A DNA stretch of 51,643 nucleotides from Escherichia phage egaa. Positions 2,109-11,487 of this stretch are shown here, piece by piece (positions within the stretch are counted from its first letter, which is position 1; every line of letters begins with the position of its first letter). The DNA lies in the sequence record NC_049852.1; one strand, given 5' to 3'. The position numbers were made by a program, and so were the translations under genes. The notes beneath the pieces are model-generated. The model was not told the DNA's origin. It searched no databases and worked only from the letters and a program-made list of their open reading frames with translations.

Positions 2109-2388
2109 GTTTTACAGCTATACCGATACAGTGGATTTTGAGGGGATACAATTGCCCCTCCCGAACATATACCGCTATATCACGCGTGACGAACGCGGAT
2201 TTATTGAAGCGTGGCGCTCAAAGCCTGTGCGTGATCTTGAGTTTGGCGGCTTCCGCTCTCTTGAGGGTGAGTTGCCGATCTGCTTCGGTCATCAAAGCGG
2301 TGAAAATCTTCCGGTTGTTGCGCGTCAGTATCGCAGACACAAGATCACAAGGGCACTTATCTCTTTAACTGGATCTGTTGTTGAATAG
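2098..2388 (+). CDS. hypothetical early protein (96 aa; internal ATG of track ORF 2047-2388)
   Basis: Track ORF start at 2047 lies inside upstream ORF; in-frame ATG at 2098 has GGAG 8 nt upstream; TAG stop lies inside next promoter element. Confidence 0.55.
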   Translation: MSSKFYSYTDTVDFEGIQLPLPNIYRYITRDERGFIEAWRSKPVRDLEFGGFRSLEGELPICFGHQSGENLPVVARQYRRHKITRALISLTGSVVE

Positions 2389-2428
2389 CACTTTTTGTTA
2401 AAAACGGTATGCGCCTGAATGGTATATT
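2384..2428 (+). promoter_or_regulatory. conserved 20-bp element + 22-nt spacer + TGgTATATT (extended -10-like)
   Basis: aatagcactttttgttaaaa 2384-2403 containing stop TAG 2386-2388; TATATT 2423-2428. Confidence 0.6.
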
Positions 2429-2459
2429 ACATCCATCGACAACGAACGAGGATTTAAAG

Positions 2460-2654
2460 ATGGAAAATCAAGTTGATGTTAAAGTTGTACAGCGTGAAAC
2501 CACTCACGAGAAAGGAATCTTTAAGAAAGGCGCTATCATCACCATTGATCTTGAGGATATGGTTGCGTATCACTCCGGCCTGACATGGAACGTTGTTAAA
2601 CATGGCAATGCTTTCAAACTGCGTGGATTCAATACTTTTATGGAGGTTGTGTAA
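2460..2654 (+). CDS. hypothetical early protein (64 aa)
   Basis: In-frame ATG (codon 18 of track ORF 2409-2654) with RBS GAGGAtttaaagATG; track start lies inside promoter element. Confidence 0.6.
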   Translation: MENQVDVKVVQRETTHEKGIFKKGAIITIDLEDMVAYHSGLTWNVVKHGNAFKLRGFNTFMEVV

Positions 2655-3037
2655 TGGCCTACACAAACAGCGATTTTAAAAACTCAACTGAAACAATCAA
2701 GGCACAACTCATTAAACAACGCGCTTATAGATTCTGGCTTGATTATCATGATCTAAGGAAAGAGATTGATAATATTATCAAGACTGGTAGCGCGTTCTGT
2801 TCTAACAGGACGGTTTGGCGCAATATGAATGCGCAGTACGGCCATGGAAAAATTCGTGTATTTGGTGAGGCTGTTGAAGCGTATGTGTTTAGCGCAACAA
2901 AAGCTGTAAGTTTTAACGTTGTTGGCATTAATCAGATGAGACTAATAATATTTCATAATTCCTGGATGATTCCCGTTTCTAATGATCATTATGGCGGAGA
3001 CGGAAAGCGAGCAAATCGCCATAGCTATTTCAACTGA
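2654..3037 (+). CDS. hypothetical early protein (127 aa)
   Basis: ORF track; start overlaps upstream stop (gtgtaATGg). Confidence 0.6.
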   Translation: MAYTNSDFKNSTETIKAQLIKQRAYRFWLDYHDLRKEIDNIIKTGSAFCSNRTVWRNMNAQYGHGKIRVFGEAVEAYVFSATKAVSFNVVGINQMRLIIFHNSWMIPVSNDHYGGDGKRANRHSYFN

Positions 3038-3079
3038 TAGCACAAATTGCTAAACAATATTTCTCAAACCTGATATAGT
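3037..3079 (+). promoter_or_regulatory. variant element ATAGCACAAATTGCTAAACA + 21-nt spacer + TATAGT
   Basis: variant of the 20-mer (GAATTG/AAATTG subfamily) directly after TGA stop 3035-3037; ATG of next gene at 3110. Confidence 0.5.
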
Positions 3080-3109
3080 TACCACACCAAATATAATGAG
3101 GATTGCATA

Positions 3110-3337
3110 ATGAAAGCCAAAATCACTAACATCATGCACACTGTTGATGCACATCACCGCGTCGCCATTAAGATGGATAAATCTTGCGGAATCAACCAGT
3201 TAACAATCACGAGCGGTAAAGGTGTGTTTGTTGTTGACTCGCATCCAGGTAGTAAAATCCGCAAATATACGCGCGAAGAATTGATTAAACTTCTTGAAGA
3301 GAACAGCATGTTCATTGAAAGTTGGAAGGCTATCTAA
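3110..3337 (+). CDS. hypothetical early protein (75 aa)
   Basis: ORF track; RBS aatGAGGAttgcataATG. Confidence 0.65.
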   Translation: MKAKITNIMHTVDAHHRVAIKMDKSCGINQLTITSGKGVFVVDSHPGSKIRKYTREELIKLLEENSMFIESWKAI

Positions 3338-3346
3338 TTAATAAAC

Positions 3347-3370
3347 GGGAGGTTTCGCCTCCCTTTAAAT
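3347..3370 (+). terminator. putative intrinsic terminator (GGGAGG-loop-CCTCCC + T/A tract)
   Basis: hairpin gggaggtttcgcctccc followed by tttaaat immediately after stop of 3110-3337. Confidence 0.45.
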
Positions 3371-3383
3371 AAAGGTGATAATA

Positions 3384-3497
3384 ATGACGAAATTTCTTGA
3401 TATTTTATTTGGTGTGATGATGAGCCTTGCTGGTCTTTTAGTTGTCACTGCTGTTATTGCTACTATTCTGATTGTTATCAAGGAGCTTATGAAATGA
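3384..3497 (+). CDS. small hydrophobic membrane peptide (37 aa), not in ORF track
   Basis: ATG 3384 after aaaGGtGAtaataATG; MTKFLDILFGVMMSLAGLLVVTAVIATILIVIKELMK; stop overlaps next start (ATGA). Confidence 0.5.
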   Translation: MTKFLDILFGVMMSLAGLLVVTAVIATILIVIKELMK

Positions 3498-3718
3498 GCC
3501 AGGACGGATTTTTTGAGCGACTGCAAAAAGCGGAAGATGCTGGGCTGAATAAAGAGGCTGCTCTTGAAGTTGCATATAAGATCAGGACACTTGATGATGC
3601 GTTGGGTGAAATGGATATGGAGCATGAATGCGGTGCTGCATTTGCAGATCCAACGATGATTGTTAATGATTGCGGCTGCAATTTTGATCCTAACTGTCCG
3701 CGATGCTTTCCGTTTTGA
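3494..3718 (+). CDS. hypothetical Cys-rich protein (74 aa)
   Basis: ORF track; RBS AGGAGcttatgaaATG; C-terminal CGCNFDPNCPRC. Confidence 0.65.
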   Translation: MSQDGFFERLQKAEDAGLNKEAALEVAYKIRTLDDALGEMDMEHECGAAFADPTMIVNDCGCNFDPNCPRCFPF

Positions 3719-3727
3719 GGTGATGAA

Positions 3728-4438
3728 ATGTATAAGGGTTTAATTTTCTCTTTGTTTGATGGATCTGGTAAAGCCGTTAAAGATTGGGCTGATGCTGGAT
3801 ATAAATGCATTTGCTTTAATTACGATGATGCTGATCACGGTGATTACCACTCAGTGCGCATAATCCATGACAATATCTTTTACGTTAACGCGTGGATTGA
3901 TGATCTATTCAAATATACCGCAAAACTTGAAAATTGGGGTAAGCCTGATTTTATTATGGCGTTCCCTCCATGCACTAACCTTGCAAATAGCGGATCTCGC
4001 CATTGGGCTAAAAAACGCATTGAGAATCCATCGTTCCAGGATGAAGCCGCCGACACTTGCAAAATAGCGGCGCAAATTGCTGATTATTTCGGTGTTCCGT
4101 ACATGATAGAGAATCCTGTAGGCAAGCTGTCAACGCTATGGCGCAAGCCTGATTATACGTTCCATCCGTGCGATTATGCTGGCTATCTGCCGGAAGATGA
4201 TAAACATCCCGACTTTCCTGATATTATTCCGGCACGGGATCGGTACTTTAAGAAAACATGCCTTTGGACTGGAAACGGATTTGTTATTCCTCCGCGCGCA
4301 ACAATCATCCCTAAAGATGGCGACAAGGATAATCCTGGTTGGGCCAAAACTGGCGGAAAATCGTCTCGCACAAAGATGATCCGCTCCCTCACACCGCGCG
4401 GTTTTGCTCGCGCCGTCTTTGAAGCAAACGCAAAATAG
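3728..4438 (+). CDS. putative DNA methyltransferase (cytosine-C5-like motifs)
   Basis: FSLFDGSG (FxGxG AdoMet motif), FPPC (Pro-Cys catalytic motif), MIENPVG (ENV-like); short for a C5-MTase, family call by motif only. Confidence 0.5.
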   Translation: MYKGLIFSLFDGSGKAVKDWADAGYKCICFNYDDADHGDYHSVRIIHDNIFYVNAWIDDLFKYTAKLENWGKPDFIMAFPPCTNLANSGSRHWAKKRIENPSFQDEAADTCKIAAQIADYFGVPYMIENPVGKLSTLWRKPDYTFHPCDYAGYLPEDDKHPDFPDIIPARDRYFKKTCLWTGNGFVIPPRATIIPKDGDKDNPGWAKTGGKSSRTKMIRSLTPRGFARAVFEANAK

Positions 4439-4478
4439 CACTTTTTGTTAAAAGCCAGGTGTAAAAGCCTGGCATAAT
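4434..4478 (+). promoter_or_regulatory. conserved 20-bp element + 22-nt spacer + CATAAT
   Basis: aatagcactttttgttaaaa 4434-4453 with TAG stop 4436-4438 inside; GC hairpin gccagg-tgtaaaa-cctggc in spacer. Confidence 0.6.
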
Positions 4479-4509
4479 CACTTCACCGAAACGAAAGGAG
4501 AAATAAACG

Positions 4510-4896
4510 ATGAAAGTTATCTGCAATAAAACCAACGTTTTGATGAGCGGTCGTTATAAAGCTGTATACGAAAAAATTGCTGGTAGCGATGATGTGATCG
4601 AGTTGGAACAATTCCAGGTAAAGAGCATTACAAAGGGTAGCAAGTGGCAAAACGCTGTTGAGTCTGACTATCGTCATATCAAGACAAAAACAATTAAATG
4701 CACATTTGTAGATCACAAGATCCCGTGCAAAAAGCATTTCAAAGAAGGAAAGCGCTACCAGATTGAGCAAGGGCGCGCGCTTGGTGCTGTTGCTGGTTAT
4801 GTTTTTGATGAAGCTGGCGACCGCTGGACGCTATACCGCGAAGAAGTAGGATTTTCCGCTGGTGGCTGTCATTTATTTGAGGCTATGTATAAGTGA
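4510..4896 (+). CDS. hypothetical early protein (128 aa)
   Basis: ORF track; RBS aaAGGAGaaataaacgATG. Confidence 0.7.
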   Translation: MKVICNKTNVLMSGRYKAVYEKIAGSDDVIELEQFQVKSITKGSKWQNAVESDYRHIKTKTIKCTFVDHKIPCKKHFKEGKRYQIEQGRALGAVAGYVFDEAGDRWTLYREEVGFSAGGCHLFEAMYK

Positions 4897-5114
4897 TCAA
4901 GGCTGAATATCGCTATAAGGTGACTCATTCAGCAACAAAAACCTTCAAGCATGGCGATATAGTCAGGCCAATAAAGAAAACGATGGTTGGATGGCTGATT
5001 GGTCTTTCTTACCACAAATCACTTTATTTTGATTTTGCTGATTCCGTAACCGCGCATTGCCATAGCGCAAGGGAACCAGAAAAAATCTTAGTTAGCATAG
5101 AGCGGATCAAATAG
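4893..5114 (+). CDS. hypothetical early protein (73 aa, GTG start overlapping upstream TGA)
   Basis: ORF track; GTGA overlap; TAG stop inside next element. Confidence 0.5.
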   Translation: MIKAEYRYKVTHSATKTFKHGDIVRPIKKTMVGWLIGLSYHKSLYFDFADSVTAHCHSAREPEKILVSIERIK

Positions 5115-5154
5115 CATTTTTTGTTAAATGCGGGTAGCATTGGTGCGGTATTAT
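5109..5154 (+). promoter_or_regulatory. element variant AATAGCATTTTTTGTTAAAT + 22-nt spacer + TATTAT
   Basis: 5109-5128; hairpin gcggtattattgccgc overlaps -10. Confidence 0.55.
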
Positions 5155-5183
5155 TGCCGCATCAAAAAAAGGAGTTATCATCA

Positions 5184-6767
5184 ATGAATTTTTCGTTTGA
5201 AACCAACAAACTAACACCAAAACAAATTATCGAATTAGCTGATGCACAAGGATTGTCTCCGGTGCGCGTGTCCATTCAGGCAAACGGATACCGTCAATCG
5301 TCCAGCTTTTGGGGTGAGGTTAATGATGTTAATAACGGAAATGATCGCTACCCTGTAATTTCTCTTGGCAATGATGTTGATGTTGTTGGTAAGTTGGCGC
5401 GCAACATTGCTCGCTCAGTTCAGTTCCCTGAATCATCGGCATATATGCATTTTATCGGCTGCGTGTCTGCTGCAATGCTTGGACGCTTCACGGTTGAGTA
5501 TCACGGAACGGATCAGCCGACCGCTCTTTATGTTGTCACAAGCCAGCCTCCTTCAACTGGTAAATCTGCCGTTAACAGCCTGGCACTTGCTCCAATGGTT
5601 GCAGAAGTGGAAAGAATTAACGATCAGCGAAAGAAGGAAAGAAAAAAGATTCAGGCAAAGTTGGCAGGTCTTGCAAAAGAGATGAAAAGCGAGCGCTCCG
5701 GCGCTGATATGGAATCTCTATACCAGGAGAAAGAAGATCTGGAAGAAAAACTGGAAAAGATGTGTGACATTGTTTTCCCTGTGTCCGACACCACGCCGGA
5801 AGGACTTGCAAGAATCAACAATCGCCAGGGTAACTTTGCTGTGATTTCAGACGAGGCAACGAGTATTAACAGCCTTTTAGGTCTGACATATGCTAATAGC
5901 GAACGTAAAACCAACAGCGAACTTGTGCTGAAAGCATGGGATCATGGTCATGTTTCTATAGCTCGTGCAAACGCTGACAACAATATGAGTTTTAAAGCTC
6001 TTGGCTGTATGGCGGTGATTGCCCAGGATGAAACAATCAATGCCATCATGGATGCAGGATCGCGCGGTATCGGTGTGAGTGAGCGTTATTTGCTTGTGCG
6101 TGAGGAATCATTTTTAGGTCGTCGAAAGTTTGTTGATGATAACGGTGATTCTACTTATGAGCCTGTTGATGGAGAACTGAAAAGTCAATATTTTAAGCTG
6201 ATCCATAACATCATGAGTGAATCAAACATCCAGCTTAAGATCAGTAAATCAGCAATGCGAGTTCTTAACATGGCTCGTCAGGAGATGGAGCCGCACCTTG
6301 CTGATGGCGGAAAGTATTCGCATACAATGCTGCGCGGTGCTCTTGGCAAAATGGATAAGCAGGTGATCAGGATTGCTTCGGTTTTGCACACTATCCGCAA
6401 CTGGTTTAATCCTGGTGGATACCCTCAGAAGTCGAAAGAGATTGAAGTTGAAACCGTTCAAGAAGCACTGCTGATGTTTAGCGAGTTGAGCAAAACATAC
6501 ATTAGCGCCGCCAACGCTTCTGGCTATGCTGGTGATGATGCTGAAATGGGTAAACTAATCGAGATTATCACTCGACACGGTAAGGCTAACAAGGGGATCT
6601 TGAATGTTCGCGCCATATATGAGGCTGCACGAAAAGTTAAGCCGTTTGTTGGCCAGGCTGGCGTAATGAAGCGTATGGAAACGCAACTGCTGCCGATGCT
6701 TGAAGAAAGAAATTATATTTGTGTGATTAATGGCGTTGTTTTTGTAAATCCAACATTGCTGGGGTAA
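5184..6767 (+). CDS. P-loop NTPase-like early protein (527 aa)
   Basis: In-frame ATG (codon 22 of track ORF) with RBS aaAGGAGttatcatcaATG; Walker-A-like QPPSTGKSA; coiled-coil KKERKKIQAKLAGLAKEMK; function unknown. Confidence 0.65.
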   Translation: MNFSFETNKLTPKQIIELADAQGLSPVRVSIQANGYRQSSSFWGEVNDVNNGNDRYPVISLGNDVDVVGKLARNIARSVQFPESSAYMHFIGCVSAAMLGRFTVEYHGTDQPTALYVVTSQPPSTGKSAVNSLALAPMVAEVERINDQRKKERKKIQAKLAGLAKEMKSERSGADMESLYQEKEDLEEKLEKMCDIVFPVSDTTPEGLARINNRQGNFAVISDEATSINSLLGLTYANSERKTNSELVLKAWDHGHVSIARANADNNMSFKALGCMAVIAQDETINAIMDAGSRGIGVSERYLLVREESFLGRRKFVDDNGDSTYEPVDGELKSQYFKLIHNIMSESNIQLKISKSAMRVLNMARQEMEPHLADGGKYSHTMLRGALGKMDKQVIRIASVLHTIRNWFNPGGYPQKSKEIEVETVQEALLMFSELSKTYISAANASGYAGDDAEMGKLIEIITRHGKANKGILNVRAIYEAARKVKPFVGQAGVMKRMETQLLPMLEERNYICVINGVVFVNPTLLG

Positions 6768-10785: not shown

Positions 10786-11487
10786 TTAACTCCGCTTTCT
10801 TGCTCGACGCTCTGCCACCGAAGGGCAAATGTCGCTGATTTTAACGTATCGCGTTTTCTGCTGCTCACCTTCTTTAAGTTCTCGCATGATGAAAATAACG
10901 CTGCCTTTGTTGTTGCCCTGCACTGGTTTACCTGTAAGCGCGGAAGTAAACGCCAGGCGTCCGGTGCGGGAATATTCTGTTCCGTCCTCCTGGTAAACTT
11001 CTCCAGTGATCCAGATGATTTCCGCTGCGCGCTGTTGCGCTTCATAAAACCATCCTGTTGATGTGTCGCAAGGTAACAGTATGTCGATCTGGTTGTTGTG
11101 CTCCATTTGCTCAATCGCCTTCTTAACAAATGGAGTAATATTGCTGTACGGTGGATTAAGCCAGATATGCTTATTACTACCCCACCAACGCTTTAAGCAA
11201 TTTGTTTCCTTGCTGTAGAATTTTTCACATACAGCATTTTCTTTGCTCGCCGCCGCGTCGATGTCATAATCACCGTATTCGCTTTCCATCCATTCGACAA
11301 GCTCAGACGGAGTAGACCACAAATCGCGCACAATGTCCGGCGTATTGCTGCCGTTATAGCGGTTGCCAGTCACTTTGAAATATTGATTTGGTTTAACAGC
11401 CTGGTAATGACCACCAGTAGCAAGAGCATTGCCAATGAATGTTTCGCGTTCTATTTGTTCAAATGTCACTTCGGTTTCTTTGCTCAT
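10786..11487 (-). CDS. dam: DNA N6-adenine methyltransferase (phage Dam-like)
   Basis: NPPY catalytic motif (WLNPPYSNITPF) of amino-MTases; position next to nuclease/helicase as in T1-like phages. Confidence 0.8.
   Translation of the reverse strand: MSKETEVTFEQIERETFIGNALATGGHYQAVKPNQYFKVTGNRYNGSNTPDIVRDLWSTPSELVEWMESEYGDYDIDAAASKENAVCEKFYSKETNCLKRWWGSNKHIWLNPPYSNITPFVKKAIEQMEHNNQIDILLPCDTSTGWFYEAQQRAAEIIWITGEVYQEDGTEYSRTGRLAFTSALTGKPVQGNNKGSVIFIMRELKEGEQQKTRYVKISDICPSVAERRARKRS

Follow-up and report, generated by a model that had tools for sequence, protein, structure and literature searches.

The 51,643-nucleotide genome of Escherichia phage egaa (NC_049852.1), referred to here as the window, encodes a 236-amino-acid protein that we consider to be an active, S-adenosylmethionine (AdoMet)-dependent DNA cytosine-C5 methyltransferase (C5-MTase). 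The enzyme belongs to a compact phage-borne lineage of approximately 210-260 aa (PHROG 757), and we assign this reading a probability of roughly 0.88. Neither gene nor function is new, as the gene is annotated in public genomes and the enzyme has been characterised experimentally in a near-identical phage. A question of wider interest is how a protein of 236 aa without a normal target-recognition domain (TRD) reads its site, and whether this site is CCWGG. For the purpose of annotation, egaa is a hanrivervirus with two orphan DNA methyltransferases, the compact C5 enzyme and a T1-type Dam.

The window is T1-like and belongs to Hanrivervirus. A 2.2-kb region around the gene (3000-5200) shares 99.7% identity with Escherichia phage herni, 99.5% with vB_EcoS_G29-2 and 92-97% with further relatives listed, among them pSf-1, slyngel, JakobBernoulli and KarlJaspers. 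The records of JakobBernoulli and KarlJaspers place these phages in the Drexlerviridae, Tempevirinae, genus Hanrivervirus. At the protein level, the window protein is 96% identical to that of KarlJaspers (Bas06; QXV82308.1), the ten differences (226 of 236 residues being shared) representing allelic variation only, and 94% identical to that of JakobBernoulli (QXV80729.1). The genes of KarlJaspers, JakobBernoulli and phage K42 have the same length (711 bp, 236 aa) and occupy the same place between small early open reading frames (ORFs) and a DUF3987 helicase. In KarlJaspers and JakobBernoulli, both BASEL phages, the orthologue of the C5 enzyme bears the label 'Dcm-like C5 cytosine methyltransferase'; that of the egaa Dam is labelled 'Dam-like N6-adenine methyltransferase' in JakobBernoulli. 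It has also been proposed in print that Dam together with a cytosine methylase serves a hanrivervirus to escape restriction.

Enzymatic activity has been measured for the orthologue of K42, a KarlJaspers-like phage with which escapers of the retron Ec86 were selected (Wang et al., bioRxiv 10.1101/2023.08.16.553469; later published as Cell Rep 2024;43:114857). The 711-bp dcm gene of K42 was mutated in four out of four Ec86 escapers, and its expression was toxic only when Ec86 was present. Liquid chromatography coupled to mass spectrometry (LC-MS) with a 5-methylcytosine (5mC) standard detected high levels of 5mC on the multicopy single-stranded DNA (msDNA) of the retron with wild-type K42 Dcm, but low levels with a C82A/E128A/K175A/K176A mutant or with the empty vector. 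Changing either C of the CCTGG in the double-stranded msDNA stem abolished defence (Wang et al., 10.1101/2023.08.16.553469). Triggering of Ec86 by Dcm is cited as established in later papers. The window protein carries C82, E128, K175 and K176 at the same positions as the residues mutated in K42 Dcm. We infer its identity to the tested protein from the K42 genome, which is 95.4% identical to Bas06 (Wang et al., 10.1101/2023.08.16.553469).

Sequence searches place the protein in a very large phage family. The window protein matches PHROG 757 'DNA methyltransferase' with E=2.5e-85 (aa 2-235 on profile positions 13-219 of 247) and, weakly, phrog_363, a full-length methyltransferase profile of 327 positions (E=2.7e-4). 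An exhaustive HMMER search of 1.84 billion representative proteins yielded 1269 clusters (E<=1e-3); of the 150 that were listed, most have a length of 210-260 aa. By tblastn, homologues were found in 1502 of 50,697 phage records, including other Drexlerviridae, Jersey-like Salmonella phages, the BASEL phages Oekolampad and EmilHeitz and many Klebsiella phages; their labels range from DNA methyltransferase, dcm and cytosine methylase to hypothetical. The short length of the C5 enzyme is genuine and does not reflect truncation. The original prediction had regarded 236 aa as a sign of a minimal or atypical enzyme: the shortness is real, but it is no peculiarity of this genome, since it is the normal state of the whole family. 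Pfam, which had been proposed as a check, gives a divided answer. The window protein itself finds no match, whereas three homologues of approximately 57% identity pass the gathering score of PF00145 (24.7-28.5 bits, cut-off 22) over their N-terminal ~90 aa only. Pfam alone would thus wrongly suggest that the protein is not a C5-MTase.

An alignment of 70 full-length homologues, which are 35-56% identical to the window protein, was used to judge the conservation of individual residues. In this set, two homologues match PF00145 at E<=0.01. As originally predicted, the ORF, which starts with ATG and spans 711 bp, contains FxGxG, FPPC and ENV-like motifs in the order expected for a C5-MTase (I < IV < VI; Table 1). 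The catalytic Cys82 of motif IV is found in 70 of 70 homologues, with P80 in 64, F79 in 63 and T83 in at least 90%. Motif VI is equally well preserved: E128 is invariant, N129 occurs in 67 of 70, and the canonical Val is replaced by an invariant Pro130; another ENP, at aa 99-101, is not the conserved copy. With C82, E128 and P130 invariant and at least 90% conservation of F79, P80, T83 and N129, the motifs are, judged from the alignment, not chance matches. Motif I, whose loop follows the model strand 5-9, deserves a qualification. G14 is present in 57 of 70 homologues, but G12, the first of the two glycines in 'FxGxG', lacks conservation in the family, and the canonical appearance of this motif in the window protein is partly fortuitous.

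Conservation extends to the C-terminal half of the protein. A strand resembling motif VIII contains Y173 and W180 in all 70 homologues, and K175 and T177 in 69 of 70 each. Further downstream, R219, S220, P223, G225 and A229 of a motif IX-like segment are each conserved to at least 90%; an hhalign alignment with E. coli Dcm that covers this segment is collinear, albeit non-significant alone. W180 and R219 are separated by ~40 residues at the canonical position of the TRD.

The AlphaFold2 model of the window protein is of high confidence (predicted local distance difference test, pLDDT, 93.6; predicted template modelling score, pTM, 0.91). Foldseek against the PDB ranks the catalytic domains of DNMT3A and DNMT3B (e.g. 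PDB 6u8p, 4u7t, 6f57) first (E about 4e-8, probability 1.0), at 11-17% sequence identity to the phage protein. These enzymes score as high as or above the phage enzyme CmoX, and DNA enzymes rank above DNMT2. Viral structural neighbours in BFVD are named phage 'DNA-cytosine methylases'. According to the model, the protein has a class I AdoMet-dependent methyltransferase fold that is specifically C5-MTase-like, and the predicted structure settles the identity of the enzyme where sequence methods are weak. Fold, conservation and literature together establish AdoMet-dependent C5 methylation of DNA cytosine via Cys82 and Glu128, and the original assignment as a C5-MTase is borne out by the fold, the invariant catalytic residues and the 5mC measured for the orthologue.

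Several results nevertheless weigh against our reading. The window protein has no Pfam match even at E<=10, and a profile built from the 70 sequences finds no C5-MTase among the PDB sequences. Comparison with E. coli K-12 Dcm is not significant by BLASTP (E=1.9) or by hhalign (probability 0.5%), the latter being collinear via motifs I, IV, VI and IX. The canonical motif VIII, QxRxR, is absent and YxKxT stands in its place. A separate motif X (GNxV) is not recognisable in the sequence of the window protein because the chain ends 6 residues beyond the motif IX-like segment. The motif II Asp that follows strand beta2 in 66 of 70 homologues is an Asn in the window protein (Asn31, codon 3818-3820). 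With regard to function, the CCWGG specificity of K42 Dcm was assumed from E. coli Dcm and was tested by msDNA mutation only (Wang et al., 10.1101/2023.08.16.553469). Phage T1, a control without the C5 gene, likewise does not avoid CCWGG (1.16x expected), and an anti-restriction benefit of the C5 enzyme is no more than plausible.

With YxKxT instead of QxRxR the lineage has diverged, which is not evidence against C5 chemistry. Asn31 is shared with the KarlJaspers protein and is presumably tolerated because the closely related K42 enzyme is active. A phmmer search of the window protein against PDB sequences likewise gave no methyltransferase match, and the best matches of the phmmer and profile searches were chance hits (E>=0.23). 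What must be abandoned is orthology to E. coli Dcm. Neither BLASTP nor hhalign supports it, and the phage protein has no PF18284 domain, no full PF00145 match and no vsr partner; 'Dcm-like' is a functional label, not a statement of orthology.

How the compact enzyme would work can be outlined from these data. AdoMet would be bound by the beta1 loop (motif I), Cys82 of the PPC in motif IV would attack C6 of a flipped-out cytosine, Glu128 of the ENP in motif VI would protonate N3, and the methyl group of AdoMet would be passed to C5. Recognition of DNA would have to come from two short loops (~aa 148-172 and 186-212) instead of a full TRD, an arrangement similar to that of the small-TRD catalytic domain of DNMT3. 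Made during infection, the enzyme would methylate phage DNA plus any other DNA in the cell. The likely benefit would be that fast-replicating phage DNA is fully methylated in a pre-emptive manner, also in dcm-minus hosts, and so protected against those restriction enzymes which such methylation blocks.

Comparison with known C5-MTases shows where the phage protein departs from them. Enzymes of the E. coli Dcm/M.EcoRII type use the same chemistry (Pro-Cys nucleophile, Glu of ENV), reportedly have the same target and show collinear motifs I, IV, VI and IX. In contrast to the 236-aa phage protein, E. coli Dcm comprises 472 aa with the N-terminal PF18284 domain, a full PF00145 match (E=3.9e-77), a large TRD and motif X. 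Its gene has an overlapping vsr partner, whereas the phage gene adjoins small ORFs and the DUF3987 helicase. M.HhaI (PDB 10mh; 327 aa) has a TRD of ~80 aa, a QxRxR motif VIII and GNSV as motif X; the phage protein is ~90 residues shorter, and ~60 fewer residues lie between its motifs VI and IX. The DNMT3 enzymes, the best structural match, are eukaryotic and CpG-specific, form DNMT3L-containing tetramers and possess motif X. DNMT3A and DNMT3B are small-TRD enzymes.

A C5-MTase fold does not by itself dictate methyl transfer. The phage enzyme CmoX (PDB 8yf3) is a DNA cytosine C5-carboxymethyltransferase that uses carboxy-S-adenosylmethionine (Cx-SAM) via an Arg in place of the motif X Asn and that is accompanied by a phage CmoA and a ligase (PMC12783734). 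It is very improbable that the window protein similarly transfers a non-methyl group and creates a base other than 5mC. LC-MS saw 5mC rise on msDNA when the orthologue was expressed (Wang et al., 10.1101/2023.08.16.553469), neither cmoA nor a ligase is annotated in the 20-kb region around the JakobBernoulli orthologue, although CmoX typically comes with both, and the plain methyltransferases DNMT3B and DNMT3A score as high or higher in structural comparison. We see just as little reason to believe that, instead of the duplex phage genome, the enzyme modifies RNA, in the manner of DNMT2 on tRNA C38, or exclusively DNA that is single-stranded or forms a hairpin. DNA enzymes outrank DNMT2 structurally, the msDNA target lies in a double-stranded stem (Wang et al., 10.1101/2023.08.16.553469), and the distribution of the gene over 1502 phage records, which include many T1-like genomes with a Dam gene as well, fits genome modification. 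The missing Pfam match and the replacement of a near-invariant motif II Asp by Asn31 could be taken to mean that the motifs are coincidental or that the gene is a decayed, inactive remnant. The probability of this is negligible given that a very large family keeps the catalytic residues unchanged, that a confident model shows the C5-MTase fold and that activity has been demonstrated for a near-identical orthologue of the same 711-bp length and residue numbering.

More room for doubt exists regarding the target and the selective value of the enzyme. We infer CCWGG, the site of host Dcm, as the target. The genome of egaa lacks 19 of the 64 6-bp palindromes. Across the whole window, CCSGG (5 sites, 0.09x expected) and GGWCC (7 sites, 0.10x) are strongly depleted, while GATC (282 sites, 1.44x) and CCWGG (122 sites, 1.78x) are both spared; GGATCC occurs once despite the 282 GATC sites. 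Sparing of GATC and CCWGG amid palindrome avoidance is consistent with protective Dam and Dcm-type methylation. However, as T1 does not avoid CCWGG either, host Dcm alone could explain the sparing, and we do not count it as evidence of specificity. It is conceivable, though unlikely, that a real DNA C5-MTase has a target other than the inner C of CCWGG, such as the outer C, or a motif that is shorter or otherwise different. The CCWGG specificity was deduced rather than mapped, the protein resembles neither E. coli Dcm nor its TRD in sequence, and its own TRD region is very short. Moreover, dcm+ MG1655 carrying Ec86 displayed low msDNA 5mC and no toxicity before the phage enzyme was expressed (Wang et al., 10.1101/2023.08.16.553469). 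If the two enzymes shared one target base, silence of Ec86 in this strain would be surprising, and a specificity, or an efficiency on msDNA, that differs from that of host Dcm is therefore conceivable. In an extended and equally doubtful form, the PHROG 757 enzymes would be a distinct C5 lineage without canonical TRD or motif X that may methylate another cytosine or a shorter motif, possibly as a DNMT3-like dimer. If true, non-Dcm specificity would explain why Ec86 is triggered by the phage enzyme but not by host Dcm. Against a different target stand the loss of defence upon alteration of either C of the msDNA CCTGG and the sparing of CCWGG in a genome that avoids CCSGG and GGWCC approximately tenfold. 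A further argument comes from McrBC of E. coli K-12, which recognises and cuts 5mC preceded by a purine (R-5mC). A phage that methylates its own DNA and plates on K-12 should therefore avoid producing R-5mC, and methylation of the inner C of CCWGG does not produce it. As these phages plate on McrBC+ K-12, targets whose methylation creates R-5mC, such as GCGC, are disfavoured. GCGC, CGCG, GCSGC and CGSCG are 2-3x over-represented in the window relative to base composition (GCGC 363 sites, 2.97x). T1 also over-represents GCGC (1.94x), CGCG and GCSGC, CGSCG not having been counted there. We considered GCGC as an alternative target and regard it as unlikely, as GGCGCC has 0 sites in the window and GCGC is enriched in T1 too. 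An active enzyme could also serve a purpose other than anti-restriction, be it control of replication or packaging, protection from phage nucleases or counter-defence outside restriction-modification (RM). In favour of such a role, BASEL Drexlerviridae show no simple correlation of methyltransferase genes with RM resistance, T1 manages without the gene, and E. coli K-12 hosts already supply Dcm. Yet the avoidance of palindromes attests to heavy RM pressure under which both putatively methylated sites are spared, and a phage-borne copy would matter in BL21, an E. coli B strain, because E. coli B lacks dcm. We thus regard a purpose outside anti-restriction as rather unlikely and favour protection of the phage genome by CCWGG methylation.

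The same activity comes at a cost. Abortive infection by Ec86/Eco1 upon methylation of its msDNA has been demonstrated in the literature for the K42 orthologue. The gene therefore cuts both ways, being a probable shield against some restriction enzymes and a documented trigger of Ec86/Eco1. Since the methyltransferase is the documented trigger, presence of the gene predicts sensitivity to this retron. The dcm-minus background of BL21 fits a retron that senses CCWGG methylation. BL21 is the native host of Ec86 (Wang et al., 10.1101/2023.08.16.553469).

The claim that the phage carries two DNA methyltransferases holds as well, although the second gene lies on the minus strand. Its product matches Pfam PF05869 with E=2.2e-60 (203.6 bits, cut-off 28.1), contains LNPPYS and is 66% identical to Dam ST20 of phage T1, with which it shares the length class and the NPPY motif. 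T1 (NC_005833) carries Dam only. Neither its annotation nor tblastn (best match E=0.017 over 42 aa) revealed a homologue of the compact C5 enzyme. As T1 encodes Dam ST20 but not the C5 enzyme, presence of the C5 gene varies within the Drexlerviridae.

Table 1. Features of the methyltransferase gene and its surroundings in the window.
Feature	Position	Strand	Basis
Compact DNA cytosine-C5 methyltransferase gene (236 aa)	3728..4438	+	PHROG 757; BASEL label 'Dcm-like C5 cytosine methyltransferase'
Shine-Dalgarno-like GAGGTGA	3717..3723	+	Sequence reading; 4 nt ahead of methyltransferase ATG
Motif I, AdoMet-binding loop after strand beta1, FDGSG, aa 10-14	3755..3769	+	Family consensus [FY]-D-x-[TS]-G
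Motif IV, FPPC, aa 79-82, catalytic nucleophile Cys82	3962..3973	+	C82 in 70/70 homologues; mutated in inactive K42 Dcm
Motif VI, ENP (canonical ENV), aa 128-130, Glu128	4109..4117	+	E128 and P130 invariant; E128 mutated in K42 Dcm
Motif VIII-like strand Y173-F-K175-K176-T177-C-L-W180, divergent from canonical QxRxR	4244..4267	+	Homologue alignment; model strand 177-182
Motif IX-like C-terminal segment RSLTPRGFARAV, aa 219-230	4382..4417	+	Local BLASTP match to RRLTPRECARLM of E. coli Dcm
7-bp hairpin GCCAGG-tgtaaaa-CCTGGC, two CCWGG sites, no T-run	4454..4473	+	16 nt past methyltransferase stop
T1-type Dam, N6-adenine (GATC by homology), 233 aa, NPPY	10786..11487	-	PF05869; T1 ST20 homology

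The C5-MTase gene lies in a plus-strand block of small ORFs upstream of the DUF3987 helicase-type protein (5121-6767). The Shine-Dalgarno-like sequence overlaps the stop codon (3716-3718) of a preceding 74-aa ORF, which suggests, on the basis of this arrangement, co-transcription and coupled translation of the two. Minus-strand ORFs overlap the gene at 3487..3810 and 4136..4441. A promoter and terminator scan of 2200-5200 returned counts at chance level, with no promoter-like site above chance near the gene. Nothing was found in an Rfam scan of the whole window.

The hairpin behind the gene folds at -17.7 kcal/mol, better than shuffled sequences (z=-2.78). The terminator scan did not call it, and the G29-2 record has a terminator feature at some point within the 2.2-kb match, which covers the hairpin region; a role as a transcript-end or stability element is possible. 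Its CCWGG-bearing stem is loosely reminiscent of the CCTGG-bearing msDNA stem that is reportedly methylated by the enzyme.

Two neighbouring ORFs merit comment. The DUF3987 ORF (plus strand) starts at TTG and spans 548 aa, whereas the JakobBernoulli orthologue has 1584 bp (527 aa); the true start is probably an internal ATG. Approximately 1 kb upstream of the C5-MTase gene, an 81-aa ORF (2409-2654, plus strand) matches PF25180 'Phage antiviral trigger protein Gp54' (E=1e-36, 124.9 bits). With this ORF and the methyltransferase gene on the same strand, the block encodes two proteins from families linked to the triggering of host defences.

Among the matched public records, 20 to 39 named 'Campylobacter phage' (e.g. 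A12a and A141; 135-141 kb, host C. jejuni) match the region or the protein. The identities of their proteins resemble those of 136-142-kb Escherichia phages such as EmilHeitz (~54%), and the host labels of these records may be questionable. In BFVD, a domain of ~28-30% identity sits inside proteins of 1126-1397 aa from uncultured Caudovirales phages, for example A0A6J5SE15 (1397 aa), which is named 'Helicase/UvrB, N-terminal'. The compact methyltransferase module thus also appears to be used as a fusion domain.

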